Source: a virus | Lineage: Duplodnaviria > Heunggongvirae > Uroviricota > Caudoviricetes | Length of the DNA stretch: 64,000 nt | IMG/VR virus record: IMGVR_UViG_3300031949_000001 | Coordinates: 219,305 to 283,304 of that record | Reading direction: 5' to 3' (one strand) | Part shown: in pieces, positions 16,494 to 58,836 of the stretch | How the letters are laid out: each line of letters begins with the position of its first letter | Position numbering within the stretch: the first letter of the stretch is position 1 | Program-made: the position numbers and the translations under genes | Notes under the pieces: model-generated | Database searches by the model: none | What the model was told of the DNA's origin: nothing | What the model saw: only the letters and a program-made list of their open reading frames with translations

Positions 16494-16504
16494 CTATGAT
16501 TTTA

Positions 16505-16699
16505 CTAGTAATTTCGAGACAATTTTGCTAATTCTCTATTGATCCAATTGATAGCTCCGTTCTTAGAAAAGAAGCCACGCTGAAAGAATGGCTTAGAGTC
16601 ACCCACCTGAAAGAAGTCTACATCCACGAACGCGTGATCGCGCCCATGAATAGCAAACGTTAACCCTCGAAAATTTCCAAATGTATAAACGTTTTTCAT
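16505..16699 (-). CDS. hypothetical small protein
   Basis: 64-aa ORF overlapping the DHFR stop by 4 nt. Confidence 0.35.
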   Translation of the reverse strand: MKNVYTFGNFRGLTFAIHGRDHAFVDVDFFQVGDSKPFFQRGFFSKNGAINWINRELAKLSRNY

Positions 16700-17238
16700 C
16701 GCATTACCCTCTCATAATGAACGAAATAGGTGTCTTTACTCTCGACCCCGTCTAATATCTTAAACTTTTTTGTTAGTTCTGTTATTGGAAAAAATTTATC
16801 ACAATCATAATATCCTTTTACAATTGTGCAATATATATCCTTTACATATGGCAAGAATTCAAGGTAAAGCTTCTCGCCACCAATTACAAACAATGTTTGA
16901 ACCTTATTTTCTACCATGGCTTCTTTTTGGTACATGATGCCTCGAAGCCAACCAATCCGTTTTGCACCATGAGGTTTGAATTCCTCGTTTCTGGAAAGTA
17001 CAAAACTTGTCCTCCCGCGCAATAGAGGTCCATCTTCGCGTAGTCCTCTATTTAGCTTATCTTCATGAATTTCCTCGTAAGTATTGCGCCCCATAACTAC
17101 AATATGACCGTTCGTCAATTCCTTGAATCGCTTCAAGTCTTTCTTATAGAATGGTTGATCCTTCCAAGGGGTCTTGAAATTCTTTGCAAACCCGCCGGCT
17201 TCATCCAAAGCGACCGCAATCGCTATGTTGTTGATCAT
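16696..17238 (-). CDS. frd: dihydrofolate reductase
   Basis: N-terminal IAVALDEAGGF, PW and VVMGRNTYE motifs; 180 aa. Confidence 0.85.
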   Translation of the reverse strand: MINNIAIAVALDEAGGFAKNFKTPWKDQPFYKKDLKRFKELTNGHIVVMGRNTYEEIHEDKLNRGLREDGPLLRGRTSFVLSRNEEFKPHGAKRIGWLRGIMYQKEAMVENKVQTLFVIGGEKLYLEFLPYVKDIYCTIVKGYYDCDKFFPITELTKKFKILDGVESKDTYFVHYERVMR

Positions 17239-17756
17239 TTGGTGCCTTTCGTCTTAGCCCAATTTAAATTAAGTTCTTCCAAATATTCCGTATCAAACTC
17301 TAAATCGAAATCAACTTCCGGCAACTTGCTCACATCCAGATCACCAATATCATATGACAAGGTTATGTGCGTCTCATACTTATCGTAATCAAACGTAGCA
17401 CCATGTTCTTTCATCAATTCTTCATGTCGCTTAACTAGAGCGGGGCACTTGAACTTTAAAACTAAACAGTTTGCTTTTTCCTCGTTTGGATCTTCCGGTG
17501 TTGTTTTCCACACCGTAAATCCTACCGTCTTGCCAACATAAGGGACATCTAGTTTACCAGCAGGTTTGTAATTTGGTAAGTGCTTTCTGCTGTAGAGAAT
17601 GGTCGTATGAAGTTTATCTGCCTTGACCGGGAGTGGAATCTTGTTATCTTCCATGTAGTCAGCCAGATTTTCTTTTGTTTCTTGGCTAGGTTTTACACCT
17701 GCGTAGATGCCTCGAACTGTTTTTCTTTTTTCTTCAAGGATTTCTTTTATTTTCAT
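17235..17756 (-). CDS. 2H phosphoesterase (LigT/Acb1-like)
   Basis: Two H-x-T/S-x motifs (LHTTIL and THITLS) about 70 residues apart; 173 aa. Confidence 0.6.
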   Translation of the reverse strand: MKIKEILEEKRKTVRGIYAGVKPSQETKENLADYMEDNKIPLPVKADKLHTTILYSRKHLPNYKPAGKLDVPYVGKTVGFTVWKTTPEDPNEEKANCLVLKFKCPALVKRHEELMKEHGATFDYDKYETHITLSYDIGDLDVSKLPEVDFDLEFDTEYLEELNLNWAKTKGTK

Positions 17757-17991: not shown

Positions 17992-18238
17992 CATTTCCAT
18001 TTCCCTTAACACCTGTACAAGTGTTGATAATCCTTCCATTAAGTAACGGACATTCAGCACATCCATAGATGCGTATCTCTCCGTCTTTCCCTTTCATTTC
18101 TGTTAAAACAATCTTACAAGCAAAAATAGTCTCCGGTGGTCCGAGATTACTTGGATACTGTTCGTCCGGTACGTCTTGTGCGAAACAGAAAGATGAACCT
18201 AACAACAATAAACTAATTAAATATTTAATCATAACCAA
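17987..18238 (-). CDS. small secreted cysteine-rich protein
   Basis: Signal peptide LISLLLLGSSFCFA followed by 6 Cys. Confidence 0.45.
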   Translation of the reverse strand: MVMIKYLISLLLLGSSFCFAQDVPDEQYPSNLGPPETIFACKIVLTEMKGKDGEIRIYGCAECPLLNGRIINTCTGVKGNGNE

Positions 18239-20275: not shown

Positions 20276-21193
20276 ATGAAACTTCATGAACTTCTTTCCG
20301 AAAACATAAAAACCATCTCACTTCAAGCAGTTCGAGACGAAAAGCTTTTCGGACCTGTGTATCATGGTTCAACCGAAGAAAATCGTAAAAAAATTGAGCA
20401 ACAAGGTTTCCGAGTTATTAAAGATGTCATTGGCGTCCGGTCGGAAGAACGAACACATGGTTTCCAAACGAGTGATTACGCTCTTGGTATACCAGCTCCA
20501 ATCCATTTTTTAGGCTGGGGTGTTTATTTCACAACTGTTAAAAGTATTGCTATGAAATTCAATTGGGCTGGTGGTCCTTCGGCTAAAGGGCTTACTGCTT
20601 ATTATATCAATGCTCCTAGAATGACAACGATAAATTTTGCTGCTCCTCGTATAATTATGAAATGGTGGATCGACAATGGATATGATTTTGATTGGAGAAA
20701 TATTCCTGGCGAAAAGAATTTCATGAACCCGGCTGTCGAAAGAGAACGCGTACGCGCAACCGATCACATGACTGAACAATTAAAATCTCAATACGATGCC
20801 ATTTGGTTCAAAGGAAAAACAATGTATAAAACCTTAGATGGTGATCAAGTCTGCATCTATGAACCTGCGGGTAAAATTTTCAAGATAGATCCAAAACTTA
20901 GTAAAGGAATGGAAGTCGGCGCAATAGTTAAAATCAAGGATGGTGCAACCGAAGCATATCTCAAATCATACGAAGAAAGATTCGCCAGAGAGATAACAAC
21001 CAAAAAAGAAGGCAATGTCGTTGTGTTTTATAATCAGAATGGTTCTCCATTCCATAAGCAACCAATCGGCGTAAAAGGTACGATCATGAATATCAGAGAA
21101 GCCCCAAATGGAAAAAAATATTACGATATTAAATGGACTAAAGGCGGTTCCCAGTTCAACTATGTTGAATCTGAATTAGAGGCTCTATCCTAG
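20276..21193 (+). CDS. hypothetical protein
   Basis: 305-aa plus-strand ORF. An ATAAATA core lies about 25 nt upstream. Confidence 0.5.
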   Translation: MKLHELLSENIKTISLQAVRDEKLFGPVYHGSTEENRKKIEQQGFRVIKDVIGVRSEERTHGFQTSDYALGIPAPIHFLGWGVYFTTVKSIAMKFNWAGGPSAKGLTAYYINAPRMTTINFAAPRIIMKWWIDNGYDFDWRNIPGEKNFMNPAVERERVRATDHMTEQLKSQYDAIWFKGKTMYKTLDGDQVCIYEPAGKIFKIDPKLSKGMEVGAIVKIKDGATEAYLKSYEERFAREITTKKEGNVVVFYNQNGSPFHKQPIGVKGTIMNIREAPNGKKYYDIKWTKGGSQFNYVESELEALS

Positions 21194-24349: not shown

Positions 24350-24376
24350 ATGGGGTGTAAAACACCCCATTTTTTA
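24350..24376. terminator. bidirectional rho-independent terminator
   Basis: ATGGGGTGT-aaa-ACACCCCAT hairpin flanked by A6 on the 5' side and T6 on the 3' side. Confidence 0.6.
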
Positions 24377-25237
24377 CTCTGCGGTCTTTTCGGTTGCAAT
24401 AATCCATGACTTGACGAACTCACTTCGAACAATATCATCTGTCGTGAATTTAACTGAAGCAAATTCGGGCATTGTTTCTATTGTTCTAAGAAATCGTTTC
24501 ATACCAGACTTGTCGTTGGACTTTTTATCTAAGTCTGTTTGAACGATATCACCGGTAAAGATGACCTTTGAATTGGTTCCGACTCTTGTCATGACGGAAT
24601 TAATTTCATGCCATGTCATGTTTTGACCTTCATCGATAACGATGATAGTGTTATCCCAAGTCAAACCACGAATGTAGGAAGTTGTCGTAAATCGGACCAA
24701 GCCGGTCTCCTTCATGTCATCATATGTCGATGCACGACCAAATAATTCTGACATGATATCGATGTATGGAAGTTCATAGAAGCGTGTTTTGTCTTCAAGA
24801 GATCCTGGCATGAAACCCAATTCGCGGGTTGCTACAGCGGAACGAACGATTCTTAAATGATAATACGATGTATTGCCATCTAGAATGTCACACATTGCAA
24901 GGTATAGGGCTAGAAATGTTTTACCGGTTCCGGCAGAACCTGAAGCACAAATTTGGTATCCCAAATTATGCAGTTTGAACATTTCTTTTTGATTATCTGT
25001 TAAGGGTTGTATTGCTCTGATATCATGTTTGGTCCATTTCTTTCTTTGTGGACCATCTAACATTGCTGCCTGATTATTGGATATGAGATGTAAATCTGCC
25101 TGTTTTTGCTTAGTTTTGTGACCTGCGTTCTTAGACATATCTTTGTCCTTTTTAATAGGTTGGTGTGTTACAAACTCGCTTACTGCCGAACTTATTTTAC
25201 ATAGCCACCCCCTTTCATTCAGTTTAAAGTTGATCAA
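24374..25237 (-). CDS. phoH: PhoH-like ATPase
   Basis: Walker A motif GSAGTGKTF and Walker B motif IVIDEGQN. Confidence 0.85.
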   Translation of the reverse strand: MINFKLNERGWLCKISSAVSEFVTHQPIKKDKDMSKNAGHKTKQKQADLHLISNNQAAMLDGPQRKKWTKHDIRAIQPLTDNQKEMFKLHNLGYQICASGSAGTGKTFLALYLAMCDILDGNTSYYHLRIVRSAVATRELGFMPGSLEDKTRFYELPYIDIMSELFGRASTYDDMKETGLVRFTTTSYIRGLTWDNTIIVIDEGQNMTWHEINSVMTRVGTNSKVIFTGDIVQTDLDKKSNDKSGMKRFLRTIETMPEFASVKFTTDDIVRSEFVKSWIIATEKTAE

Positions 25238-26779: not shown

Positions 26780-27151
26780 TTACTCCTTATCAAGCGGGTC
26801 GTCTTTGTTTACTTCGATCCATACACCATCCATCTTAACCTCAACTTTCACCTTACGCAACTCCTTTCTAACATTTTCATCTATTACAGAAAGTAGCCCG
26901 GTTCTACGTGCAGCTTCGTGCTTAACCCATGCTTGAAACTCCTTTGTGTTAAACATCTTTTCAAAAGCATCGATTTTGTTATCATGCTGTGATCTGGACG
27001 CCTCACTATAGCCGTGAGCACCAGATGGGCGGTGTATACAGTGAACCGCACTGGAGGTCTTATTTTTTTTCTGCCCACCCGAGCCGGTGCCCTTGGTATA
27101 CGACCATTCACAGTCTTTCGCCGTTACCCTAAAAAGTAACTCTTTTCCCAT
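26780..27151 (-). CDS. ArfB/ICT1-like peptidyl-tRNA hydrolase (class I release factor GGQ domain)
   Basis: GSGGQKKNKTSSAVHCIH versus E. coli ArfB GAGGQHVNKTSTAIHLRF; basic C-terminal tail; 123 aa. Confidence 0.75.
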   Translation of the reverse strand: MGKELLFRVTAKDCEWSYTKGTGSGGQKKNKTSSAVHCIHRPSGAHGYSEASRSQHDNKIDAFEKMFNTKEFQAWVKHEAARRTGLLSVIDENVRKELRKVKVEVKMDGVWIEVNKDDPLDKE

Positions 27152-28186: not shown

Positions 28187-28579
28187 TTAGACTTCTTTTA
28201 ATAACTCCCTCAATATGAGTAGCTCAGATTCTGTTATGGTGCGCTTATATTGCAGCCAGTTTGTCAACAGATGTTCAATGTTTGCAGCGCCAATTTGATT
28301 GGCTGAGTGAACCTGAAACCTGAAGTTTGGTTGTAAGAAATCACGATGTTTTTCAACAGCATCTAAATCTTTTTCGACTAACCATTTGGCGAAAGCATAG
28401 CCATCATTACCTTCTTCGTGTCCAAGGTCATGATCAAAACTAACAACGGTTGGTGCTCCCCGACCAGTAACTAATTCTTTAGCTTGAGATACTGAACGGG
28501 CGATTACCCATTTCGTGATACCTAGCGGATTTGCGGCTTCGGAAGGGGAGCGTAGATCGTCTAGAAAAAGATTCCACAT
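28187..28579 (-). CDS. hypothetical protein with CheY-like receiver-type motifs
   Basis: LFLDDLR ... VSFDHDLG ... YAFAKW resemble the DD/D/K positions of REC domains. Confidence 0.35.
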   Translation of the reverse strand: MWNLFLDDLRSPSEAANPLGITKWVIARSVSQAKELVTGRGAPTVVSFDHDLGHEEGNDGYAFAKWLVEKDLDAVEKHRDFLQPNFRFQVHSANQIGAANIEHLLTNWLQYKRTITESELLILRELLKEV

Positions 28580-28667
28580 AAACTACTCCTATGATTAGAT
28601 CGTAGCCGTATTTACCGGAAATGTCAATAGAAAAGCCACCCGAAAGCGGCTTTTCTAAGTTAGATTT

Positions 28668-30140
28668 TTAGAAGTCGTACTGAAGACGCATCATAATTAC
28701 CTTCTCACCATTTGTCTTAGCAACAGATGGTGTTGAAGCAGCTTGAGAGACAATCACTGGACTGTTGAATTTAGTATCAACATAGTTCAACATTAGACGA
28801 GTTCTTGGATTAAGAATCCAATTCACACCATATGTGATAGATGTTGCGCTAGTTGTAAATGCTGCACTCGCTGTTGAAGTAGGAATGACACCTGTACCAG
28901 CCTTACCGGTTGCGAAATCATCAGCATTAAACTGACTGAAACGAATACCAACTTCCCACCCACCACCACTAAGAGTCTTATAGTCAAAATCTTTCTTTGG
29001 TTTCATACGGTCGAACTTGCCATCCTTATACCGATCAGCGTAATGTTCACCCGTGATCATCCACATTATATCCACATAATTACTGGTGATTTTTTTGTCG
29101 TAGCCGACATTGGCTACCGAAACTCCACTGTAGTTGACTGACATCATTTCAGTTTGTATCTTAAAATTCTTATAAGCTAATACACCTTCAAGACCGGTAC
29201 GAGTCCGGGACAAATCAGCTCCAGTAAATGTACTCGGTGTAAAAAATATGATACCACGAGATTCAGTTCTACCGCTTACTGCCGCTCCGATTGGCTCGGT
29301 GCCTGTTGTGTAGCCAATTCCAAGATGAACAACAGTGTCTTTCCAAGAAAACAATTCAGCAAAGTTGATTGTGCCGCGTGCGATAATATCATTGCTATCG
29401 ACCGTATTTACTGTTTCGTTTGCGTTCTTACCTTGACCAGTAGACAATGCCAATGCATATGTGGTACCAGCCAATGGTGTACCATGAACCATGATACCGC
29501 GTTCCTTATTAGGAACCATCGAATTACCCATCGAACGTTCCATGAAATCGGTGAACAAGTCGCTTGTCATCTCTTCCAAACTGAAAGGCATCTTGAATTG
29601 ACCAACGCGGAACTGTGCTTCTTTCCAATAGTTGACGTTTAAATATGCTTCGTCAAGTACGCTTGCTCCACTACCACCACCGAAATCACCAATTATAAGC
29701 CATTCATACGAACCGTAGAATTTACCCTTCAAACCCAAAAAGCCTCTACGAATGTCGAATGTATTTGCTGTTGCGCCTGCCGCATCACCACCAAACTTAC
29801 GATAATCAAGTTGTAGACGAACTGTTGGGGCGAATGAGAAATTTTTGTCAGTACTTTCAAAAACCAAAGAACCGTCTTTAAGTTTACCTTTTACATCTGT
29901 TTTTGCGTTTTCCTTTGCTTTCTCTTTAGCTTCTATGTCCTGGGCTACCCTTAGAGCGGTTGCTCTACGATCAGCCCGTTGTGTTAATGTTTCCTCTTCA
30001 TGCTGGTTCGAAAGCGTCTTATACTCATCATCAGTTAATTTACCACTGTCATGAAGTGTATCGAGAAGATTAGTCGTTGTATCTGCATACACGAATCCTA
30101 TGCACATACTCAATGCGATTGTCATAATTAATTGTTTCAT
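28668..30140 (-). CDS. phosphate-selective porin O/P-like outer-membrane beta-barrel
   Basis: Signal peptide, alternating amphipathic strands and a C-terminal ...LQYDF with terminal Phe. Shares an operon with pstS. Confidence 0.6.
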   Translation of the reverse strand: MKQLIMTIALSMCIGFVYADTTTNLLDTLHDSGKLTDDEYKTLSNQHEEETLTQRADRRATALRVAQDIEAKEKAKENAKTDVKGKLKDGSLVFESTDKNFSFAPTVRLQLDYRKFGGDAAGATANTFDIRRGFLGLKGKFYGSYEWLIIGDFGGGSGASVLDEAYLNVNYWKEAQFRVGQFKMPFSLEEMTSDLFTDFMERSMGNSMVPNKERGIMVHGTPLAGTTYALALSTGQGKNANETVNTVDSNDIIARGTINFAELFSWKDTVVHLGIGYTTGTEPIGAAVSGRTESRGIIFFTPSTFTGADLSRTRTGLEGVLAYKNFKIQTEMMSVNYSGVSVANVGYDKKITSNYVDIMWMITGEHYADRYKDGKFDRMKPKKDFDYKTLSGGGWEVGIRFSQFNADDFATGKAGTGVIPTSTASAAFTTSATSITYGVNWILNPRTRLMLNYVDTKFNSPVIVSQAASTPSVAKTNGEKVIMMRLQYDF

Positions 30141-30142
30141 GG

Positions 30143-31117
30143 TTATTCCTTAGTTTCCATTTTAATTAGTTGCTCGATGGTTAGTCCTACTTTATTCTCT
30201 CCACCGAATTTTGTTCCGAATTTTTTACTTCTAGCGTGTGTTAGATTGTATTCATAAGCATGAACAGGCAAAGGCACATACTTGACTTCTTTAACTAATT
30301 TCGGCGCGTTCTTCATGTAGTACTCTATGAATCGTTGAACTTCCGATCTTTCGAAAGACCTTGCATTAACATAGATAAAGAGAGGTCTGGATAATGGTTG
30401 ATAAGTACCGTTCATAACTGTTTCTACGGAAGGACCGACCGGCTTTGCCCCAGTCTTGGAAATGATTAGAACTGCCCTTAGTTTGTTACGATTTTCATCA
30501 AAATAAGCAAACCCAAAATATCCAAGCGAATTCACATCTTGAGAAACGCCTTGAACTAGAACATTGTCATCTTCGCTCGCAGTAAAGTCACCACGAGAAG
30601 ATTTGGTTTTTCCAACAATAGCTTCGGTAAAATAATCAAATGTTCCAGAATCAGCACCGGGACCATAAAGCTTCAATTGAGTATTTGTCCATGCTGGATT
30701 TATTTGATTCCATTTTGTAATTTTACCCTGCGCCATCGGCTCCCATATTTTCTTTAGTTCTTCGACAGTAATGCTATTAAGCCAAGTATTTTTAGAGCTA
30801 ACAACAACAGTCAGAGCATCAAACGCAACTGGTAGTTCATAATACTGAATGCCGGCTACTTTACAAGCTTCCATTTCGGATTTGAGGATAGGACGAGACG
30901 CGTTAGCAATATCAATTTCGCCTCGACAAAACTTCTTAAACCCGCCGCCTGTACCAGAAATACCAACAGTAACTTTGGTGTGTGTCGATGATTGAAAGTC
31001 TTCTGCTACTGCCTCTGATATAGGAAACACTGTGCTCGATCCGTCTAGTTTAACTAACTGAGCATGTGCGGTTACAGAACAAAACAAAAAAGTAAGGATT
31101 GTTAGAACTGTCTTCAT
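30143..31117 (-). CDS. pstS: phosphate ABC transporter substrate-binding protein
   Basis: Signal peptide plus [17 protein letters not shown] and GISGTGGG motifs; 324 aa. Confidence 0.85.
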
Positions 31118-31324: not shown

Positions 31325-32557
31325 TTACTTCTTTACCTTAGCGGTCGCTTCCTTACCAGCAGTCTGCAAGTCTATGCTAAGCTGCTTAGCTGCATTAGCA
31401 GTCATGATTTCCATAAATGTCTGTGCATTGATTACAGCGGAGCCACCACCATTAGCGCCACCGCCGATCACGACGCCTGGAACCATGTTGCCAGGGAATC
31501 CTTGGAAAGCAGTAGCCCATGCCTTATTAATTTCGATAAGGGCATCAAGTTTAGGTTGCAAAGCACCGTCAGCATTCATTACAAGTTTCTTTCTTTCGGC
31601 ATCACCCTCGCCGCGCAGAATCTGTGCTTTCTTATACTGTTCAGCTTGTTTAGCATCGAGTGTTGCAACTTCAAGTTGCTGTTGAGCCTCTGTAACAACC
31701 TTAGCCTTGATTGTTTCTTGTTCCCACTTAGCCTTGGCAGCGTTTGCCTCACCTTGCTTAACCGCAGTAATAGCTTCCTGTTCAGCACGCAGGGCAGCAG
31801 CCCTCGAAATCTGAACCTGAGTTGTGGCGCCTTGTCTTTCAGCGATCTGTTTTTCAACTATAGCATCGTAATCGATGGCGCGAATTGAAACCGGTTGAAG
31901 CTTGATACCGTATTCATCAAGAATGGAACCTTGCTGCCGTTTTGGCATACCTTTTTCATCGTGTGCGATCTTAACAAGAGTGATTTGTTTCTTTTCTCCA
32001 GTAAGCGGATCGGGCGCGAAAGTAGTTTCGGTTGTGGTAACATAGATACCATTTTGTGCTTGATCATTAATATACTGAACCAATTCAGCGCGACGTTCTG
32101 CTGAGGATTCCGTCGAAGACATTAGTGGACCAGACATATAGATAGCGTTGTCAACCATCTTGGAGATACCCTTAGCAATAATTCCCTCGGAACTACTAAA
32201 ATTCTGTTGAATTGCGATGATACTCTTGCAATCTGAAGGCATTAGCCAGTTGACGGAACCGGACAAGTCTGCGTGTCCACCATCATTAAAACGTATCTTT
32301 TTGGAATTGTCAATGATTTCCTTACCCTTTTCCTTCAAGAAGTCATAAGACTCTTGACGTGGATACTTGGTAACATGTCCCAACCATTGTGGTTGCCAGC
32401 CGGGCTGTGTGAAGCAATTAAGCTTTCCACCAAGACTCTGAATAACCATGACCTTGTCGGATTCCAAATTAACTGCCATATTTGGAAGAATGATAACCGC
32501 AACTATAGCCAATACAACAGCAGCAGCCATACCTAGAATTTTATTTAAAGTCCACAT
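31325..32557 (-). CDS. SPFH/band-7 (stomatin/prohibitin-like) membrane protein
   Basis: N-terminal transmembrane helix, SPFH domain, long Ala/Glu/Lys/Gln coiled coil; 410 aa. Confidence 0.7.
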   Translation of the reverse strand: MWTLNKILGMAAAVVLAIVAVIILPNMAVNLESDKVMVIQSLGGKLNCFTQPGWQPQWLGHVTKYPRQESYDFLKEKGKEIIDNSKKIRFNDGGHADLSGSVNWLMPSDCKSIIAIQQNFSSSEGIIAKGISKMVDNAIYMSGPLMSSTESSAERRAELVQYINDQAQNGIYVTTTETTFAPDPLTGEKKQITLVKIAHDEKGMPKRQQGSILDEYGIKLQPVSIRAIDYDAIVEKQIAERQGATTQVQISRAAALRAEQEAITAVKQGEANAAKAKWEQETIKAKVVTEAQQQLEVATLDAKQAEQYKKAQILRGEGDAERKKLVMNADGALQPKLDALIEINKAWATAFQGFPGNMVPGVVIGGGANGGGSAVINAQTFMEIMTANAAKQLSIDLQTAGKEATAKVKK

Positions 32558-33105: not shown

Positions 33106-33843
33106 TTGATTTCCATTTTTGTGCCTAATAAATACATCAACTATTTGTGGGGTATTTCAATGTATTACATCATATACAAAATCACAAATGTTGTCAATAA
33201 TAAAATATATATCGGAAAACACAAAACCTTAGATTTAAATGATAATTATATGGGTTCTGGTAAGTATCTAAAACGCGCCATTAAGAAATATGGAATAGAA
33301 AACTTCAAAAAAGAAGTATTACATTATTGTAACTCTGATGAAGACATGATAGCAAAAGAACGAGAAATAGTTAACGAAGAATTCTTGAGTAGGACGGATA
33401 TTTATAATCTAAAAATTGGTGGAGAGGGTGGGTTTGATTATATAAACAAGTCTGAAAAGAAATTAGAATATGTTAGAAAAGGCAGAACAGAGGCAAATAA
33501 AAAAGATGCCCATATAAAAGCAGCCCAAAAACGTAAAGAACAGATGGCATTATATGGGTGTCCGTTGGGTAACTATTTAGGAAGTTTTAAAACTGATAAA
33601 GAATTACAGAAACTTGGACATAAATTTGCTAATACACCATCAGCAAAAGATAAAAGGAAGGAAACTTACAAAGAAATTAAGCATCAACAAGGCGAAACTA
33701 ATTCTCAATATGGCACTTGTTGGATTTATAATTTAAAATTAAAACAAACCATGCTAGTTAAAAAAGAAAGTTTGAAAGAATATGAAAATCTCGGATGGAA
33801 TCTTGGACATAAAATGAGATTTCATAAACCAAAAATAACATAA
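33106..33843 (+). CDS. GIY-YIG homing endonuclease
   Basis: YIIYKITN...KIYIGK with canonical spacing, Arg and Glu catalytic residues, and a basic C-terminal DNA-binding region. Confidence 0.75.
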   Translation: MISIFVPNKYINYLWGISMYYIIYKITNVVNNKIYIGKHKTLDLNDNYMGSGKYLKRAIKKYGIENFKKEVLHYCNSDEDMIAKEREIVNEEFLSRTDIYNLKIGGEGGFDYINKSEKKLEYVRKGRTEANKKDAHIKAAQKRKEQMALYGCPLGNYLGSFKTDKELQKLGHKFANTPSAKDKRKETYKEIKHQQGETNSQYGTCWIYNLKLKQTMLVKKESLKEYENLGWNLGHKMRFHKPKIT

Positions 33844-33936
33844 AAACTGGAGCGTCCTGCGAAATTCGAATTCGCTCATTCACGTTGGAAGCGTGACATG
33901 CTACCGTTGAACACCAAGGACGCATTTAAATATTTT

Positions 33937-36197: not shown

Positions 36198-36962
36198 ATG
36201 GAACCAATTAGATACCGGACGATTTGGATATCAGACGTACATTTAGGAACGAAAGGATGTCAAGCAGAGAAACTTCATGAATTCCTTAAGCGCACCGAGA
36301 GCGATACTCTCTTTCTCGTTGGTGACATCATTGATTTTTGGGCATTAAAACGTGGCTCTAAGTGGACTAAAGAGCACAATGGCATCCTTCAAAAAATCCT
36401 CAAAAAGTCACGACACGGAACGAAGGTCATTTACATTCCAGGTAATCATGACGAAGCACTCCGCGAATATTGCGGTAGTAAATTTGGCGACATTGAAATA
36501 CATCACGATTATACGCACACAACAGCAGACGGAAAGACGATCTTTTGTCTTCATGGTGATTACTTTGATATGGTTACACGTTATCACAAATGGCTCGCTA
36601 ATTTGGGAGATGTAGGATACAACCTTCTAATACGATTGAACAACTCTCTCAACTGGCTACGTAAGATTATTGGAAAGGACCATTGGTCGCTTTCGGCTTA
36701 CATCAAGAACAAAGTCAAACAAGCGATAAGCTACGTCAGTGACTTTGAAGAAAGTGTTGCTAAGCACGCTAAAAAATTAAATGTCGATATGGTCTTGTGT
36801 GGACACATCCATTTTGCTACAATGACTGAATATCACGGTGTAAAATATCTCAACACTGGAGATTGGGTTGAAAGTCTAACCGCCATTGTCGAACATAGAG
36901 ACGGGAAACTTGAACTGATAAAATGGAATGAATATGAAAAAAGGATTGCTCGTAATAACTGA
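36198..36962 (+). CDS. LpxH-like metallophosphoesterase (UDP-2,3-diacylglucosamine hydrolase family)
   Basis: Motifs ISDVHLG, GDIIDFW, GNHDE, GHIHF; length and motif order match LpxH. Confidence 0.65.
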   Translation: MEPIRYRTIWISDVHLGTKGCQAEKLHEFLKRTESDTLFLVGDIIDFWALKRGSKWTKEHNGILQKILKKSRHGTKVIYIPGNHDEALREYCGSKFGDIEIHHDYTHTTADGKTIFCLHGDYFDMVTRYHKWLANLGDVGYNLLIRLNNSLNWLRKIIGKDHWSLSAYIKNKVKQAISYVSDFEESVAKHAKKLNVDMVLCGHIHFATMTEYHGVKYLNTGDWVESLTAIVEHRDGKLELIKWNEYEKRIARNN

Positions 36963-39222: not shown

Positions 39223-39729
39223 TTATAGTCCTAATTTCTGTAGTTCTCTGATTACTTGGAAAGCGTTTTCAAATTTAATACCGATACCACCAGCAGCAAT
39301 CCAAGGATCGATTGCGCGCTTCGCGTCATCGATCAAGATATGATTCGGAGCCGCGTGATGCGCCTTGTCTTTCGATGCACGAACGACAATGATTTTTACA
39401 TCCGATCCAAGATGCTTTGCTGTCCATTCTTTCTTTTCACGAGGGGCATCGCCCGTATCTCCAGATGCTGTGAGAACGGTTGGATTGTACTTCTTGATGT
39501 ATCCCCATAGGTCAAGACCATCAGGCATGAATTCCATTTCACCCCAAAACTCACCACCATTCTTTTCGTAACGCACTATAGAACTCCAAAAGTGTCTTTT
39601 CTCTTTTGGTGTCAGTGTATCAGCGGGTTTGTTCAATCCAGTGACCTCTAGTCCCTTCTTACCGAAGTCTACGAGAGTTCCATCTAAATCGACAAATAAT
39701 TCATATTTTCTTACATCTTCAAGTTTCAT
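39223..39729 (-). CDS. 5'(3')-deoxyribonucleotidase, HAD superfamily (NT5C-like)
   Basis: Motif I LFVDLDGTLVDF (DxDGT.xDF). Confidence 0.6.
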   Translation of the reverse strand: MKLEDVRKYELFVDLDGTLVDFGKKGLEVTGLNKPADTLTPKEKRHFWSSIVRYEKNGGEFWGEMEFMPDGLDLWGYIKKYNPTVLTASGDTGDAPREKKEWTAKHLGSDVKIIVVRASKDKAHHAAPNHILIDDAKRAIDPWIAAGGIGIKFENAFQVIRELQKLGL

Positions 39730-40124
39730 TTTACCATCTCCGGTACAACCATTATTTCAATAGGATCTACCGGTTCATATCCTTGAGAAATCAAGGTATT
39801 CGAATCTACCGGCTTAAAACCCTTCTTTCTATCCAATGACCATGTGATATGGTAAATTTTGCCATCAGGACGATGAATTTCACCATCTATCTCTACCACA
39901 AGGGCTTCCAATCCTTCTCCATTATCTGCATATCCAACTATTATAGCAGTTTTCGGAACTTCTGGCAATGAAGAATTTGATTTAACGAATTGAACAGTTA
40001 TATGGTTACCGATGAATTCTGGATATTTTGGAGGGAAAAGCTCGGCAAGACGCTGCCTAGTTTGATCGTTGAAATGATAGGCTATATACGATTCTTTAAG
40101 AAGGTAAAATTCATTTAGTTTCAT
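39726..40124 (-). CDS. hypothetical protein
   Basis: 132-aa ORF, translationally coupled to its neighbours. Confidence 0.4.
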   Translation of the reverse strand: MKLNEFYLLKESYIAYHFNDQTRQRLAELFPPKYPEFIGNHITVQFVKSNSSLPEVPKTAIIVGYADNGEGLEALVVEIDGEIHRPDGKIYHITWSLDRKKGFKPVDSNTLISQGYEPVDPIEIMVVPEMVK

Positions 40125-40716: not shown

Positions 40717-42654
40717 TTATTTCAAAGGAATAAGGTTAGCTTTGACTTCTTTGAATCTGTCAGCCAACTTTGGATACTTGTATCCGTAGCCGTAGTGAGC
40801 CATATACTTGATAAGTTCAGAAGGCCAACTCCACCATCTTGCGTTTTCCCAAGATTGCATCTTAACAACTGCACGCTTAAGATTTGCCTCGTCTCCACTT
40901 TCGAGCCAATCCAAGACTTCCTGAAGCATGTCCGCAGTGTTCTTCCACCAAGACTTGTCACTATGACCACGAGTGTTGATAACGTCTTCCTCAGTCTTCG
41001 CTGCCACGTCACGGCAGTGTTTGATTGAATCACGAACAGCCTTCAATACTTCGGCTGGGACTTCGATTGAACCGTATTGTTGAGGAACGTCACCACCCGC
41101 CTCTTCTTCTTTACCGAATAGAGTATGTTCATCGGAAATCTCAGTATGGTCATAGTCGGGGCGCTTGTATTGTGGCTTATCGTATGCTGGCGCACCAACA
41201 TTGCTGGAATTTTGACCCTTGCTACCAGAAGATTTAGTTGAAAAATTACCAACCTTTTCTTTCTGTAGAAGGAATTTTTCTGTTTCAATAACAATATTTT
41301 CATTCACGTCGTAATGAATCTTACCCTTACGGATAACAGCCTTCTTTTTGCTTTCTGGATGTGAATAGAATACTCCACCAGCGTCCTTGTCATCTGCCAT
41401 TGCGCTATGGGTCTTTTCGTATCCTTTGGTCTTAAGCTCTTTATGAGCATTAGCAAACGCGTCTTTATCCATAGATGCTGCTTCAGCAAGCGCTTTGCGT
41501 GCTTCTGCCTTAGCCTTTTGACGGTTGTAATCTTTATCGGTGCGATGACCACCACCCTTCTTTGTCATTAGAACAGTATTCAAGGTCTTTGCACCGGCTG
41601 CTTTGGAAGGACGATCCTTACGGGTCTTACCTTCTTCTAAGTCCACACTTTCGGTAACACCCTTACCATTTGGATAGTTGCTCATACCCAACACATCTTC
41701 ATACTTTTTGATGGAGAAGGCAGGATCAGTTACACCATCGGTGTGACGACGTAGATATTCTTCGGCTTCTTCCTTGGTGTCATATGGACCGCTCTTGATA
41801 GCGTTGGTTTTTGTATTCTGAATGACATAACCTTGCATTCCAAGACCGACACTTTCCTTGGTCAATTCTATTGGATCGACCTTGTAGTTGCGACGCTCTT
41901 CAGGAGACATCTTTTGGTTCATGAAGTCTTCTGCACCTTTTGGTGTCATGAAGCGAGGACCATGAGTACTTCCGTCCTCTTTGTGTTTTAGAACGTAACC
42001 TTCGACGCTAGTACCAAAAGCGACACATTCCATAGCCCAATCAATGACTGACCAATCGGAACGTTCATCTTTTGAAACTGCTTGTTTTAGGTAATCTTTG
42101 GCTTCTTTACGAGACTCAAAAGCCATACCATATGGAACGTCCAGCATATCACCGGTAGTTTTATTCTTTAGACCAAAACCAGCAACGCGGCTGACTTGAC
42201 TCCAATAACCATGAGAGGCTTGTGAAGCACCAGAGACACGATATGTAAGAGAAACGTCGGAATCAACACTTTCCGTTCTAGGAGTAAATGTGCGCCATTT
42301 GTTTCTATTTTTGTCAAGGTATGTCTCGGCACCGCTATAAACCGATGACAATAATGAGCGAACATCTTCGGCTTTCTTAGCAGTAGGCAATGGACCTACG
42401 GCGCCACGTTCCTTATCAGGATTCATCGACTGCGAAATTTCATAATTATCCAAATAGAGGTACCAATTGCCGTGAGCACCACCTTCATCCAATTGTATTG
42501 ATTTTTCGATAGCTATTTGGAAGGCGTCTGCGAGCATCTCCAAAGTTTGTTCTTTGGATACATTATTTTGTTCCGTTTTAGCTTGCATCTGAGAAGAAGG
42601 ACGAACATCGTAATTCATTCCAGATAGTTTAAGGAATTCGTTTTTCAAATCCAT
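40717..42654 (-). CDS. large hypothetical protein with three internal ~45-aa repeats (putative late/virion protein)
   Basis: 645 aa. Repeats GYW..(31 aa)..EAKDYL, GYV..(22 aa)..GAEDFM, GYV..(26 aa)..EAEEYL. An exact late-promoter motif lies upstream. Confidence 0.55.
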   Translation of the reverse strand: MDLKNEFLKLSGMNYDVRPSSQMQAKTEQNNVSKEQTLEMLADAFQIAIEKSIQLDEGGAHGNWYLYLDNYEISQSMNPDKERGAVGPLPTAKKAEDVRSLLSSVYSGAETYLDKNRNKWRTFTPRTESVDSDVSLTYRVSGASQASHGYWSQVSRVAGFGLKNKTTGDMLDVPYGMAFESRKEAKDYLKQAVSKDERSDWSVIDWAMECVAFGTSVEGYVLKHKEDGSTHGPRFMTPKGAEDFMNQKMSPEERRNYKVDPIELTKESVGLGMQGYVIQNTKTNAIKSGPYDTKEEAEEYLRRHTDGVTDPAFSIKKYEDVLGMSNYPNGKGVTESVDLEEGKTRKDRPSKAAGAKTLNTVLMTKKGGGHRTDKDYNRQKAKAEARKALAEAASMDKDAFANAHKELKTKGYEKTHSAMADDKDAGGVFYSHPESKKKAVIRKGKIHYDVNENIVIETEKFLLQKEKVGNFSTKSSGSKGQNSSNVGAPAYDKPQYKRPDYDHTEISDEHTLFGKEEEAGGDVPQQYGSIEVPAEVLKAVRDSIKHCRDVAAKTEEDVINTRGHSDKSWWKNTADMLQEVLDWLESGDEANLKRAVVKMQSWENARWWSWPSELIKYMAHYGYGYKYPKLADRFKEVKANLIPLK

Positions 42655-43033: not shown

Positions 43034-43402
43034 TTATTTCTTGACGTGTCGAAATACCGTTACTGGAACAACTTCGATGTATCGAGGCTGTGTTTCTGGT
43101 ATAATAACCCGACATTTATAACAAATTCTCCAGCCGTGATAAGCGATACTAAGGTCGAAACTCTCTCGTAACTTACTGAAAAAGCTATATTTTAAAAGGG
43201 TGTACTTAAACGCAGCGGCAAGAACTTCTTCTCTGATAGACATAGCACCTTCACCAGTAATTCGTTCAATCATACGTTCAAAGAAGTGATCCGGGCAAAT
43301 GCCGAACATTACCCGGATCTCTCCATCATGCGTTTCGCGAACCTCTCTATCAAACCTTTGACAAAGAGACTGATACAAACTTTGAAGGTATACTACGCTC
43401 AT
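43034..43402 (-). CDS. hypothetical protein
   Basis: 122-aa ORF. Confidence 0.4.
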   Translation of the reverse strand: MSVVYLQSLYQSLCQRFDREVRETHDGEIRVMFGICPDHFFERMIERITGEGAMSIREEVLAAAFKYTLLKYSFFSKLRESFDLSIAYHGWRICYKCRVIIPETQPRYIEVVPVTVFRHVKK

Positions 43403-44493
43403 TACTTTAATCCCAAGATCACCATCAATCCATCAAGGCTCATCTCTCGCAAATACTTCTTAACAGAATCAACCTTACCAGCCCGCATGCTGTACAGGGC
43501 ACCGGGAGTACGACACTTAGCCGCCTGAACTGCCAAAGCAAAGTCCTTCTGAGTCGAGATATCCTTGATAGTATCATACAAAGCTTCCAATTCGGACACA
43601 AGAACATCATAACGCGTCTGAACCTCAGTGAATTGAGGTTCATATTCCGGAAAATAGGTCAAGAACTCCGAACCTTCCGACGTACGAACGATTTCCGTAA
43701 TTCGTTTGTAACCAAAACCATCCTTCAAGTGATGGATCGCGACATAAGCCGGATTCTTCATCTTGACACGATTGAAGAGACCATTCTCACGGTTGCTTAC
43801 AACGATGTAGCCTTCCTGGGAAAGCGGATCGATTGCAGCAAAAGTGTCAACAATTGCCTCGAATGATGTGAGGTCATAACGCTTAACACCAGTGAATGTA
43901 TCCTCGAAAAATACAGTCGAAGATTCAGATTCTGTTTCACGGTTGTGAACACCAATCAAAGTCAATGACGGTTCTGTGTAGCGAACAACAACACGGTTGA
44001 ACTGGCTTGTCAATTCGAAAGAAAAACACCAATCCTGACCAATGTCATCTAAAGTGTAACCCATTTCCTTAAAAGTCTTCCAAAAAAGCTCTTCAAAGGT
44101 GAATGGAAAGTCACCAACCTGACCACCAGCGTGCGGCGAACCAGAAGTCGCAACGTGCCACTTACCATCATAGTGGTACATAGTCATCAAGCTACCATCG
44201 ACCTTTTCTTCGACAACTGCGTCGTTCCAATCGATGGGCTCGGCGTGTCCTTCTCCATAGTTGAAGAATTTCTTAAAGCGATAGCAAATCAACTTCCAGT
44301 TGTTGAATTCATCCAAGATGATACCACGGCACTCCTGCACGATTTCTTCGGCAAAAGGAGACTCTAACTGATCATACTTCAGTAGGACCAAGTTCATGAA
44401 GTGTGGATGACGCATAGCGTTAATAGCGTACTTCGCTTTGAGGTCATCAAGGGAATTGCCATCACGAAGATACTTCTGTACCAAGAGTGTCAT
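43402..44493 (-). CDS. RNA ligase 1 (RnlA-like)
   Basis: Motif I EEKVDGSL (T4 Rnl1 has KEDG), motif IV EGYIVV, motif V RVKMK; 363 aa versus 374 aa in T4. Confidence 0.65.
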   Translation of the reverse strand: MTLLVQKYLRDGNSLDDLKAKYAINAMRHPHFMNLVLLKYDQLESPFAEEIVQECRGIILDEFNNWKLICYRFKKFFNYGEGHAEPIDWNDAVVEEKVDGSLMTMYHYDGKWHVATSGSPHAGGQVGDFPFTFEELFWKTFKEMGYTLDDIGQDWCFSFELTSQFNRVVVRYTEPSLTLIGVHNRETESESSTVFFEDTFTGVKRYDLTSFEAIVDTFAAIDPLSQEGYIVVSNRENGLFNRVKMKNPAYVAIHHLKDGFGYKRITEIVRTSEGSEFLTYFPEYEPQFTEVQTRYDVLVSELEALYDTIKDISTQKDFALAVQAAKCRTPGALYSMRAGKVDSVKKYLREMSLDGLMVILGLK

Positions 44494-44503
44494 TTTTAAA
44501 TCT

Positions 44504-44875
44504 CTACTTGAGTTTTTCGACTTGTTTCTTTAACGCATCGATTTGTTTCATAATATCGTCAATTTGCGCTTGACGATTCTCGGTTTCTATTTGTTTCATA
44601 ATATCGTCAATTTGCGCTTGACGATTCTCGGTTTCTATTGGATCACTCACAACCACAGTATGTTGAATTGTTTTTCCAACTGGATATGCAGTGGAAACCG
44701 TATCCATGGCAGGACAACGAACCACCAATACCCACCCCTGTATAGCCTTACAACCAGCAAGACTTGGGTCGAGAGTACCCATGTCACTCACTACTGTTTG
44801 TGCTCCCGACGAACAAGAAGCGACGGCGAAAGCAATAACAACGATTGCGGTGATTGAGTAAAATTTCTTTAACAT
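44504..44875 (-). CDS. lipoprotein with duplicated coiled-coil repeat
   Basis: Lipobox FAVASC, Cys-rich middle, tandem ETENRQAQIDDIMKQI x2; TAG stop. Confidence 0.5.
   Translation of the reverse strand: MLKKFYSITAIVVIAFAVASCSSGAQTVVSDMGTLDPSLAGCKAIQGWVLVVRCPAMDTVSTAYPVGKTIQHTVVVSDPIETENRQAQIDDIMKQIETENRQAQIDDIMKQIDALKKQVEKLK
44541..44636. repeat. perfect 2 x 48-bp tandem direct repeat inside the CDS
   Basis: tttgtttcataatatcgtcaatttgcgcttgacgattctcggtttcta occurs twice consecutively. Confidence 0.9.
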
Positions 44876-49099: not shown

Positions 49100-49175
49100 T
49101 GGCGCGCAGTGTGGGAATCGGACCCACGACAATCGGTTTTAGAGACCGCTCCTCTGACCACTAAGGTAACTGCGC
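49100..49175 (-). tRNA. tRNA with CUA anticodon (amber suppressor; Trp-like anticodon arm)
   Basis: The minus strand reads GCGCAGT-TA-CCTT-AGTGGTCA-GAGG-A-GCGGT-CTCTAAA-ACCGA-TTGTC-GTGGG-TCCGATT-CCCAC-ACTGCGC-G-CCA. It is 76 nt with 7/7 acceptor pairs, U33, A37, anticodon positions 34-36 = CUA, and discriminator G73. The anticodon arm is nearly identical to E. coli tRNA-Trp (CCGGUCUCCAAAACCGG). Confidence 0.75.
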
Positions 49176-53649: not shown

Positions 53650-54141
53650 CTATCCTTTATAATCGCAAACAAAAAATTCTACATCCGGAAAATTAGCTGC
53701 GACCTTCTCAACTACCGGTTTAACTTCTTCTTCCCAATTCAATCCACCGAGATTACAACCGATCTTGGGCATGTAAATCGGAAGTTTTCGCTGTCTTGCA
53801 AAAGAGGCTACTGTTGACAACCCTTGTTCGATGGCTTCTGGATTAGCGTATTTAGCACCGTCTCGACCGTAGTATAATTGAGTGAAAATGTTGGCGACGA
53901 AGAGTTCCAAACCGATGGCTTTAACGCCTTCTTGTGTGTCTACATAGAGGACAAACCCAAGCAAACCTGCTTTGTTTTTTTGGTTTTTCTCCCAATATGA
54001 ACGATATGCCTTGTAGACAATTGGGAATCTTTGACGTAGCGCAAATGCAACACCAGATCCCATTTTCCCTTGACAATTACATCCATGAGCGATGATTCCC
54101 ATCTTAATGGTGGTGAGGTCTAATGTTTCATAATGTATCAT
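53650..54141 (-). CDS. macro domain protein (ADP-ribose binding/hydrolysing)
   Basis: GIIAHGCNCQGKMGSGVAFAL and PKIGCNLGGL align with macro-domain motifs (compare Af1521 AIVNAANKRLEHGGGVAYAI ... SAGIYG). Confidence 0.7.
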   Translation of the reverse strand: MIHYETLDLTTIKMGIIAHGCNCQGKMGSGVAFALRQRFPIVYKAYRSYWEKNQKNKAGLLGFVLYVDTQEGVKAIGLELFVANIFTQLYYGRDGAKYANPEAIEQGLSTVASFARQRKLPIYMPKIGCNLGGLNWEEEVKPVVEKVAANFPDVEFFVCDYKG

Positions 54142-55461: not shown

Positions 55462-55959
55462 CTAAGGTAGTAATACAATTCTTGCTATGTCCATACCCTC
55501 TTCAAGTGTTTCCACAATGTAAGGGGTAGATGCGTTAATCATCGGATGGTCATGCAAATTGCCTGACTTTTCTCTGACTATAATGATAGGTTTTCTTTGT
55601 TGCCAAACCCAGGCAATTTCCATGACAGTACCAATGGTAACACGAGTCGCACCGAGTAAATTAACAAACGTGCCATCACGATTGAAACAATCAAAAGCAT
55701 CTCTGAATAGAATTCCTTGTTCAGAAGACAAAACGGAAGACAGTCCACCAAGACCTAATTGTCCCGGAGCCCCATCAATAACTTTCAGTTTCTTCAGGTA
55801 AGACTTGCCGCGCAAAGGCGACCAGCATTCAAATTCTGTTAGTGTATTGGCGACATAAAAGCGCCAATCCGTACTTTGTTCGTAATTTAGACCACCAATT
55901 GGTCCCGAGAGGTATAGGCTAGGTTTTTTCATTATTATTCTGTATCTTCCATTAACCAT
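55462..55959 (-). CDS. nucleoside 2-deoxyribosyltransferase-like protein
   Basis: SLYLSGPIGG and ...RVTIGTVMEIAWVWQQRKPIII (GTxxE.G/A..K.P) match NDT/Rcl-fold motifs. Confidence 0.55.
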   Translation of the reverse strand: MVNGRYRIIMKKPSLYLSGPIGGLNYEQSTDWRFYVANTLTEFECWSPLRGKSYLKKLKVIDGAPGQLGLGGLSSVLSSEQGILFRDAFDCFNRDGTFVNLLGATRVTIGTVMEIAWVWQQRKPIIIVREKSGNLHDHPMINASTPYIVETLEEGMDIARIVLLP

Positions 55960-56513
55960 TGATGAAAGTCGTATGCTCCATGAAGTGTTGTATGTGTATC
56001 TTTCGTTAATCCATGAACTAAAGCAACGCCAACTTGTTTAGCACAAATTGCTGATGGTACGTTTCCAACACCAGTTCCCAATCCCGGAATAGCGATACTT
56101 TTAAAACCGTATGTAATAACCGCTCTAACAATAGCCTTCATCGCTAGATACACGTTTACAGTATTACCAATCCTCATAGGAATTCTCATTGTTGGCGCTG
56201 CCAGGAGAGATTTGAATTGTGGATGATCTGTAAAGACTGCTACTGCTTGACCCACCAAAAGTTCACCATTGTAAGCGCTGTTGATAACCTCTTGCAACCT
56301 CTCTTGAACGTGCCAGCCAAGGTATCGGCTATAGGCTAGATCAATGCCACCGTCCATGAAACCAAAGCTGTTGGCGGGACTAACGATGGCGTCATATTCG
56401 CCCGGCAAATTGGTGAAATCACCTTGGAAAAATTTTACATCCGATGCTTTTTGAAATCGCTTTCGATAGGCATCAACCATTTCAGCGCTTCGATCAAAAA
56501 AAGTTATTATCAT
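55935..56513 (-). CDS. macro domain protein (MacroD/YmdB-like)
   Basis: GDFTNLPGEYDAIVSPANSFGFMDGGIDLAY and IAIPGLGTGVGNVP align with the MacroD1 GDIT..VDAIVNAAN..LLGGGGVD and FPCISTGIYGFP motifs. Confidence 0.7.
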   Translation of the reverse strand: MIITFFDRSAEMVDAYRKRFQKASDVKFFQGDFTNLPGEYDAIVSPANSFGFMDGGIDLAYSRYLGWHVQERLQEVINSAYNGELLVGQAVAVFTDHPQFKSLLAAPTMRIPMRIGNTVNVYLAMKAIVRAVITYGFKSIAIPGLGTGVGNVPSAICAKQVGVALVHGLTKDTHTTLHGAYDFHQWLMEDTE

Positions 56514-58305: not shown

Positions 58306-58836
58306 TCATTTTTCGTCCAATCCCCATACTGCTCTTATTATGTCTTCTTCTGTACAATGCGTTGGTTCAAGATGACTTGGGAAAATTATTCGCTGTCCTT
58401 TCAACTCTTTTCGTATCTTCATCAAAATTTTACCTAGCTCGTTTCGACCATTACCAGAGCCAACAGGAGATACACCCCAAAATTTGTCAGACCAACGGTT
58501 TCCTTCCTCTAAAACAGCATCACCAGTCTCTAATAGCATATGAGCAAGATCGCCATTCTGTTGGAATTTTGCGCGCACAATTTCTTCCATGAGACCAACC
58601 TTGACTGCTTCCCAATCTGGACGAACGACCATCTTACGACCAAACCGTTTTACGTCTCCGGGCTTCTCTATTGTAGAAATCTCAAGGCGTAGCTCTCGGT
58701 CGGTAGTCTTCGCGGCGACGTAGGCATTCTCACTTGCCCGCCAAAGAATATTGTCCCATACAAATCGGCATTTCCAAAAATTTGAAAGGAACCTATGCTT
58801 GCCTTGGAACTCTAGAATTTTCTTTACGGTTTCCAT
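58306..58836 (-). CDS. NADAR (YbiA-like) domain protein
   Basis: FLSNFW..., SENAYVAAK, KF.Q...L...LL.TG.A.L.E, D.FWG motifs colinear with E. coli YbiA; 176 aa. Confidence 0.75.
   Translation of the reverse strand: METVKKILEFQGKHRFLSNFWKCRFVWDNILWRASENAYVAAKTTDRELRLEISTIEKPGDVKRFGRKMVVRPDWEAVKVGLMEEIVRAKFQQNGDLAHMLLETGDAVLEEGNRWSDKFWGVSPVGSGNGRNELGKILMKIRKELKGQRIIFPSHLEPTHCTEEDIIRAVWGLDEK

Follow-up and report, generated by a model that had tools for sequence, protein, structure and literature searches.

A divergent Rnl1-type RNA ligase and its candidate healing partners in a 64 kb region of a huge phage

In phage T4, anti-PrrC tRNA repair is carried out by the RNA ligase Rnl1 (gp63, rnlA) and the polynucleotide kinase–phosphatase Pnkp (pseT), with pseT lying 1.4 kb from rnlA. 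Fungal and plant Trl1 combines a ligase with a P-loop kinase and a 2H phosphoesterase of the CPD type, and in the bacterial Pnkp/Hen1 system, exemplified by Clostridium thermocellum Pnkp (kinase, calcineurin-type phosphatase and ligase), a metallophosphoesterase can heal 2',3'-cyclic and 3'-phosphate RNA ends. In jumbo phages, modular repair kits have been described in which Rnl1, Rnl2 or RtcB is accompanied by polynucleotide kinases, 2H enzymes, cRec proteins and HAD phosphatases (section 3.4.9 of Iyer, Anantharaman, Krishnan, Burroughs and Aravind, 2021, Viruses 13:63, PMC7824862; hereafter Iyer et al., 2021), with calcineurin-like or HD enzymes as occasional parts, and Macro and NADAR proteins, tRNAs, ribosome-rescue hydrolases and PhoH as further ones. 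Here we examine, against this background, an RNA ligase gene at 43402..44493 of a 64,000-nucleotide stretch of Caudoviricetes DNA (IMG/VR record IMGVR_UViG_3300031949_000001, positions 219,305 to 283,304; hereafter the window). The window amounts to ~17% of a 378,912-bp contig from the Joint Genome Institute (JGI) that bears the exact ligase protein; a 378,808-bp contig is nearly identical to it, and the exact protein also occurs on Logan contig SRR9005073_327913, which extends over ~78 kb to the left of the window. Together with ~14 kb of flanks (10 kb on the left, ~4 kb on the right) it makes up the region searched here, the other ~300 kb (~80% of the contig) lying outside it.

The kits of Iyer et al. 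(2021) are already described, and the window fits that description almost item by item: it has Rnl1 and Rnl2 ligases, a 2H phosphoesterase, cRec, a stand-alone HAD phosphatase, a calcineurin-like enzyme, Macro and NADAR proteins, PhoH, tRNAs and a rescue hydrolase. It differs from them in that the HAD phosphatase is NT5C-like rather than PNK-HAD or SAK, the rescue hydrolase is RF-1/ArfB-like rather than PTH2 (or the rare Pth1), the 2H phosphoesterase near the ligase is a 132-amino-acid (aa) protein, here called mini-2H, from a family without a Pfam model, and no kinase is found in the searched region. A ligase with a CPD-type 2H partner recalls Trl1 and vertebrate CNPase; unlike in Trl1, these parts are separate genes 3.3 kb apart, there is no kinase with them and no Tpt1/KptA in the window, and the ligase is closer to T4 Rnl1. 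Unlike T4, the window phage has no Pnkp within the 64 kb, and, unlike the bacterial Pnkp/Hen1 system, it has no Hen1 and no fused kinase in the window, where both metallophosphoesterases (13119..13817 and 36198..36962) leave TIGR04075, the bacterial Pnkp profile, unmatched. The gene around which the comparison turns is the following.

43402..44493, minus strand: Rnl1-family ATP-dependent RNA ligase, 363 aa (PF09511, PHROG 562, AlphaFold2 fold)

The original prediction called this gene an Rnl1-type ligase from two motifs, EEKVDGSL (residues 95–102) and EGYIVV (residues 227–232), and profile and fold comparisons bear the call out. The protein matches Pfam PF09511 (RNA_lig_T4_1) at 59.6 bits against a cut-off of 28.3 (E = 5e-16) and over the whole profile (positions 1–227 of 227), as well as PHROG 562, ‘RNA ligase and tail fiber protein attachment catalyst’ (E = 3e-44, residues 21–351), and T4 Rnl1 is the sole family that it matches by sequence in the PDB. 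Unlike its sequence as a whole, which is only ~19.5% identical to T4 Rnl1 and gives no match to Pfam T4_Rnl1_C, the catalytic positions are shared. Residues R56, K97, D99, G100, E160, E227, G228, K244 and K246 are invariant across 37 aligned homologues and align to T4 Rnl1 R54, K99, D101, G102, E159, E227, G228, K240 and K242; motifs I (K97-V-D99-G100), III, IV and V are all present; and K75 and F77 of T4 Rnl1 are conserved too. Together with K119, a position at which this subfamily differs, the T4 residues R54, K75 and F77 are the Rnl1-specific essential residues reported from mutational work by the Shuman laboratory.

An AlphaFold2 model built from the 37-homologue alignment (pLDDT 94.9) has a nucleotidyltransferase domain at about residues 50–250 followed by an all-helical C-terminal domain at about 248–360. 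Its best fold matches in the PDB are three T4 Rnl1 entries (E ~1e-15, TM 0.69–0.71, 386–395 columns); because ~390 columns are aligned, the superposition includes the C-terminal helical domain, a full-length likeness to T4 Rnl1. Fungal Trl1 ligase domains and archaeal Rnl3 come next, at TM ~0.5. Since profile, fold and catalytic residues agree with the Rnl1 family, we take the gene to encode a predicted, catalytically competent Rnl1-type RNA ligase, one that would work like T4 Rnl1 without being the T4 RnlA equivalog. At E ≤ 1e-10 it has 2371 public homologues, many on contigs of 100–470 kb.

By the established chemistry of covalent nucleotidyltransferases, Lys97 would attack ATP to form ligase–AMP, the AMP would be handed to the 5'-phosphate end of an RNA, and the 3'-OH would attack the adenylylated end to seal the break. 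For the substrate, the healing partners and the place of the kinase we infer the following arrangement. The ligase would rejoin tRNAs, or other RNAs of the translation apparatus, after cleavage by host ribotoxins, as one module of a counter-defence kit; Rnl2, the tRNAs of the phage, an ArfB-like hydrolase and enzymes that process ADP-ribose would be further modules. Where a metal-independent nuclease has made the break, the ends would need healing before sealing; the 5'-kinase, whether a fused Pnkp or a small stand-alone Pnk of the AAA_33 type, would lie in the ~300 kb beyond the searched region, and healing of 3' ends could plausibly be local, through the mini-2H, HAD and cRec proteins described below. 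To this reading, an active Rnl1-type ligase of a huge phage with its kinase elsewhere and its 3' healing nearby, we assign a probability of roughly 0.6. If these functions hold, the phage carries one more of the huge-phage modular RNA-repair kits directed against host tRNA-cutting defences, an expected result whose value lies in annotation.

The kinase was sought in several ways. Among all window open reading frames (ORFs) of at least 50 aa, a Walker-A search returned only PhoH, a DnaB-like helicase and non-kinase chance matches, and a relaxed pattern added none. Searches with phmmer and tblastn, using T4 Pnkp, a relative's Pnkp and three stand-alone Pnk-type kinases, gave no match in the window; Pfam scans of nearly all window ORFs of at least 93 aa gave no kinase family; and neither flank holds a Pnkp or Pnk-type kinase. 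PhoH (24374..25237) was considered as a kinase and rejected, being a PhoH-family ATPase. The original prediction had found no P-loop kinase/HAD Pnkp in this window, which is correct. Read as a trait of the whole phage, the claim is not supported: the window is too small a part of the 378,912-bp contig for its negative to establish phage-wide absence, and relatives carry Pnkp or a far-off Pnk. A gene for a Pnk-type kinase probably lies in the part of this genome beyond the window.

The relatives in question can be named with some precision. The helicase of this phage shares ~33% identity with its counterparts in RsoM2USA, Atu_ph07, Phosso, XacN1 and PA5oct, which places the phage among the Atu_ph07-like phages, ‘group 2.2’ of Iyer et al. 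(2021); it is an environmental huge phage of ~379 kb, of the T4 superfamily and related to Atu_ph07 and RsoM2USA. Across sister lineages, Pnkp lies 0.7–2 kb downstream of Rnl1 proteins up to 61% identical to the window ligase, so that a fused Pnkp is kept beside the ligase much as in T4: at locus L009 (Rnl1 60% identical) a gene with AAA_33 and HAD_PNKP domains lies 2 kb downstream, and at L018 (61% identical) a canonical T4-type Pnkp lies 0.75 kb downstream. Seven Rnl1 matches and seven Pnkp matches moreover pair on contigs of equal length in bp. Together, these loci and pairs tie the ligase subfamily to classical heal-and-seal repair.

Close linkage is nonetheless far from universal. Of 80 IMG/VR loci encoding a related Rnl1, 39 have a Pnk-type kinase no more than 10 kb away (a fused Pnkp in 15) and the other 41 have none at that distance. 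RsoM2USA, the nearest cultured relative whose genome is complete (343,806 bp, assembled and searched locally), encodes a T4-like Rnl1 (337028..337960), an Rnl2 (266722..267723), a mini-2H and a HAD phosphatase. Its stand-alone AAA_33 kinase (69894..70319, 141 aa; AAA_33 E = 3e-13, 31% identical to Pnkp kinase residues 1–96) lies ~90 kb from the mini-2H and ~200–270 kb from both ligases. A further locus, L100, has 1 kb between its mini-2H and a stand-alone Pnk kinase. Given the 41 loci without a nearby kinase and the distance in RsoM2USA, the absence of a kinase near a ligase says little about the genome as a whole, and the missing Pnkp near Rnl1 should be read in that light: the kinase of relatives is often small, stand-alone and far from the ligases.

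For the 3' end, three genes in the window come into consideration.

39726..40124, minus strand: mini-2H phosphoesterase, 132 aa, on the strand of the ligase gene and 3.3 kb downstream of it
39223..39729, minus strand: stand-alone HAD (DxDxT) phosphatase, NT5C-like, 168 aa, its start overlapping the mini-2H stop
28187..28579, minus strand: cRec (cyclic-phosphate processing receiver) protein, 130 aa (PF20274)

The mini-2H matches nothing in Pfam or NCBIfam and belongs to a family of ~170 homologues, nearly all ~120–150 aa long and many on contigs of 200–576 kb. The 2H motifs, H41-x-T43 and H92-x-T94-x-S96, are invariant across these homologues, and the model (pLDDT 91.5) has a 2H fold whose nearest structural match is the catalytic domain of CNPase (CNPase/Trl1-CPD-like); the viral models that it matches best are of domains within giant-virus proteins of 765–771 aa, one of them named ‘RNA ligase’. 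Given the invariant motifs and the confident fold match, this widespread family of ~130-aa proteins is one of minimal 2H phosphoesterases that fold like CNPase, a correction to the label ‘hypothetical’ that it bears in each of the four cultured huge phages in which it occurs: Atu_ph07 (2159..2488), Phosso (380146..380511), RsoM2USA (RsoM2USA_249) and SCTP-2. By motif and model the window member is a candidate RNA 2',3'-cyclic phosphodiesterase.

The HAD protein carries the motif LFVDLDGT and matches PHROG 2643 (E = 5e-27); with Pfam it reaches NT5C at 19.7 bits, below the cut-off of 24.8, and gives no HAD_PNKP or HAD_SAK match. Its sequence makes it a candidate remover of 2'/3'-phosphates, or else a nucleotidase. 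We also considered whether the 132-aa and 168-aa proteins might be a split Pnkp and rejected the kinase half, the mini-2H having a 2H fold and no P-loop. The order Rnl1 ... mini-2H ... HAD recurs at loci L011, L098 and L101, and HAD is adjacent to or near mini-2H at these three loci and in RsoM2USA. The cRec protein matches PF20274 at 78.5 bits against a cut-off of 27 (E = 6e-22); cRec proteins are predicted to act on 2',3'-cyclic RNA ends, and operonic linkage of cRec to RNA ligase has been reported (Iyer et al., 2021, PMC7824862). As candidates for clearing 2',3'-cyclic and 2'/3'-phosphate ends locally, the mini-2H, HAD and cRec proteins are better placed than the enzymes first put forward for that task, which are listed here with the other ligases of the window.

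8033..9016, minus strand: Rnl2-family RNA ligase, 327 aa (PF09414, E = 5e-13; PHROG 548, E = 7e-55, full length)
18229..20184, minus strand: NAD-dependent DNA ligase (LigA-like), 651 aa (PF01653, PF03120, BRCT)
17235..17756, minus strand: Acb1 anti-CBASS 2H phosphodiesterase (PF23474)
13119..13817, minus strand: calcineurin-like metallophosphoesterase, aq_1665/PdeM-like (PF00149, PHROG 547)
36198..36962: second metallophosphoesterase, LpxH-like, paired with a glycosyltransferase

Both other ligase calls of the original prediction stand: the Rnl2-like gene matches its family profiles and has a 39% identical homologue in RsoM2USA, and the NAD-dependent DNA ligase is complete, with adenylation, OB and BRCT domains. 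The same prediction proposed that the metallophosphoesterase at 13119..13817 and the 2H protein at 17235..17756 could heal ends for Rnl1 in a non-T4 pathway. Healing by 2H or other phosphoesterases is a reasonable idea, both superfamilies including RNA end-healing enzymes and C. thermocellum Pnkp offering the precedent of a metallophosphoesterase, and one already published for jumbo phages, a few of which have calcineurin-like phosphatases in their repair kits (PMC7824862); the genes named for it are the wrong ones. The 2H protein does have the 2H fold, as had been said, but as an end-healer it falls away, because it is Acb1, an anti-CBASS cyclic-oligonucleotide phosphodiesterase rather than a repair enzyme (PF23474 at 130.4 bits against a cut-off of 27, E = 5.5e-38, profile positions 1–143 of 144). 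The metallophosphoesterase was likewise recognized correctly as calcineurin-like. It resembles Aquifex aq_1665 (PDB 1xm7, E = 3e-11) and more weakly PdeM (TIGR04123 at 35 bits against a cut-off of 150); with that likeness, the missing TIGR04075 match and no conserved link to a ligase, it makes a poor candidate for an end-healer. Both genes lie 26–30 kb from Rnl1, their RsoM2USA homologues adjoin each other far from the ligases, and neither enzyme could supply a 5'-kinase. That these two enzymes serve Rnl1 is therefore hardly credible.

We also weighed whether the ligase might be kept mainly for a non-catalytic, morphogenetic task that would require no healing enzymes. T4 genetics has established that Rnl1 (gp63) has a second activity, in tail-fibre attachment; PHROG 562 and RefSeq product names carry that function, and the left flank of the genome, that of a distant T4-type myovirus, encodes gp25- and gp5-like baseplate proteins. 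Against this stand the near-invariance of the tested catalytic side chains, except at the K119 position, among a diverse set of 37 homologues, implying that catalysis is under selection; the placing of the gene among early/metabolic genes and not structural ones; and the link of the ligase to Pnkp in sister lineages. A mainly morphogenetic role thus seems very unlikely, though the two roles are compatible and not mutually exclusive. A stronger challenge is that the lineage has truly lost its polynucleotide kinase and that the ligase works without 5'-phosphorylation by the phage. PIN-type toxins are metal-dependent nucleases that leave 5'-PO4/3'-OH ends, and the ligase could reseal breaks that already bear such ends; alternatively, the mini-2H, HAD and cRec proteins could heal 3' ends while a host kinase gives the 5'-phosphate. 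Kinase loss would agree with the lack of a kinase in the 64 kb and ~14 kb of flanks, within 10 kb of the ligase at L011, and at the syntenic distant relatives L098 and L101; with an SPFH gene that is followed here by PstS and porin genes where distant relatives have Pnkp; and with the absence of the 378,912-bp contig from the Pnkp matches listed. Set against it are the ~80% of the contig that lies outside the searched region, the ~200–270 kb between kinase and ligases in RsoM2USA, the half of related ligase loci that have no nearby kinase anyway, and the general congruence of kinases and phosphoesterases with ATP-dependent ligases in jumbo phages (PMC7824862). We regard kinase loss as unlikely. 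Its more specific form, a kinase-less lineage in which the divergent Rnl1 works with a new, translationally coupled mini-2H/NT5C-like HAD module that splits 3' healing between its two proteins, and which answers ribotoxins leaving 5'-phosphate or depends on the host kinase, is decidedly unlikely. A ligase without a kinase anywhere in the lineage would, if true, be the more interesting outcome, pointing to such ribotoxins or to reliance on the host.

Several observations weigh against an active Rnl1-type ligase with a distant kinase and local 3' healing. The ligase stays far below the NCBIfam equivalog profile for T4 RnlA (TIGR02308, 59 bits against 242.25, and over residues 54–262 only), which marks it as a member of a divergent subfamily and not as that equivalog, and the position of T4 K119 is occupied by S117, with Ser or Thr in 36 of 37 family members and Asn in one. 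No kinase was found for the phage in the searched region; the close relatives, with Rnl1 at least 67% identical (e.g. L011), have none within 10 kb of the ligase; and the 378,912-bp contig is absent from the best 120 homologues of a relative's Pnkp, from the listed Pnkp members of 10 multi-member clusters and from the 80 JGI loci listed from a Pnkp profile scan. As to 3' healing, the second-best fold match of the mini-2H is Acb1, and the protein could instead degrade signalling nucleotides as Acb1 does; the HAD protein could be a plain deoxyribonucleotidase. At L099 and in Phosso the mini-2H is unlinked to any ligase, neither it nor a matching HAD occurs at any of the 80 IMG/VR Rnl1 loci, and the linkage of Rnl1, mini-2H and HAD could reflect inherited synteny rather than function.

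Beyond these questions, a number of features in the window and its relatives deserve description, beginning with the relatives. Locus L011, the 71% relative, is syntenic with the window from 28 to 55 kb. At L098 (3460..4584) and L101 (1319..2467) the place of the window ligase is taken by a T4-like Rnl1 that does match T4_Rnl1_C and is only ~22% identical, which suggests either that a member of another Rnl1 subfamily has replaced the ligase in place or that the gene has diverged very rapidly. In RsoM2USA the end of the mini-2H gene is overlapped by RsoM2USA_248 (159734..160165), a 143-aa protein with an APS-kinase-like P-loop (PF01583, E = 7e-13) and no homologue in the window; this pairing of kinase and 2H recalls CNPase and Trl1. 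XYS97661.1 of Sinorhizobium phage Phosso (L104 7044..7559), annotated ‘polynucleotide kinase’, was considered as a stand-alone kinase near the mini-2H and rejected: it carries DxDxT (IDIDETL), has no Walker A and no Pfam match, and is thus a HAD phosphatase with a misleading public annotation. Atu_ph07 has a homologue 42% identical to it. Finally, 3.4 kb separates Acb1 from the aq_1665-like metallophosphoesterase in the window, and their RsoM2USA homologues (28535..29050 and 29544..30023) are direct neighbours; the two may share a role against signalling, or the proximity may be no more than conserved synteny.

The remaining genes of note around the ligase, and the translation-related genes of the window, are these.

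43034..43402, minus strand: 122-aa ORF, lineage-specific, its ATG overlapping the ligase stop codon (TAATG)
40717..42654, minus strand: 645-aa repeat-containing protein, kept downstream of the ligase in relatives
28668..30140, minus strand: phosphate-selective porin O/P, an auxiliary metabolic gene
30143..31117, minus strand: PstS-like phosphate-binding protein, an auxiliary metabolic gene
33848..33923, minus strand: tRNA-Gly(UCC) (ARAGORN)
49100..49175, minus strand: amber-suppressor tRNA, anticodon CUA (ARAGORN, labelled tRNA-Pyl)
26780..27151, minus strand: RF-1 domain protein with a GGQ motif, an ArfB/ICT1-like peptidyl-tRNA hydrolase (PF00472, E = 2e-12, residues 797–856 of a concatenated scan)

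The 122-aa ORF gives no match in Pfam, PHROG or NCBIfam; it is found on the exact-match contigs and is missing from L011, where a 643-aa gene comes straight after the ligase. With no family match and no counterpart there, it was rejected as a hidden partner of the ligase. The 645-aa protein has a 54% identical homologue at L011 and a partial one at L101; it lacks a Walker A, gives only weak SPOR-like noise with Pfam, and contains several internal repeats of ~30 aa (G[YF]x[LI]...K.EA..[YF]L-like). Just upstream of the ligase, a lipoprotein-like ORF (44504..44875, minus strand) contains an exact tandem peptide duplication, in which IETENRQAQIDDIMKQ occurs twice. A scan of 38–45.5 kb for promoters and terminators gave counts no higher than in shuffled sequence.

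Further along, an SPFH/Band 7 gene (31325..32557, minus strand) is followed by the PstS-like and porin genes, in place of the Pnkp that comes within 2 kb of the SPFH gene at six distant JGI loci. A GIY-YIG homing-endonuclease-like gene (33106..33843, plus strand) abuts tRNA-Gly, and at L011 the same interval holds a HAD_SAK_2 ‘Swiss-army-knife’ phosphatase (16504..17121) that has no homologue in the window. Despite the amber-suppressor tRNA, TAG ends 11 of 100 predicted window genes; the tRNA may be connected with the recoding of stop codons that has been described for huge phages. The ArfB-like gene stands beside a rhodanese gene, an arrangement kept at L101, and probably serves ribosome rescue within the same counter-defence theme. 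The window also holds an ADP-ribose/NAD toolkit of two Macro-domain proteins, a NADAR protein and a weak PARP-like match (53650..54141, 55935..56513, 58306..58836 and 20276..21193). Just outside it, the right flank encodes NAMPT (L014 2034..3470) and a radical SAM protein, while the left flank contains the baseplate genes.

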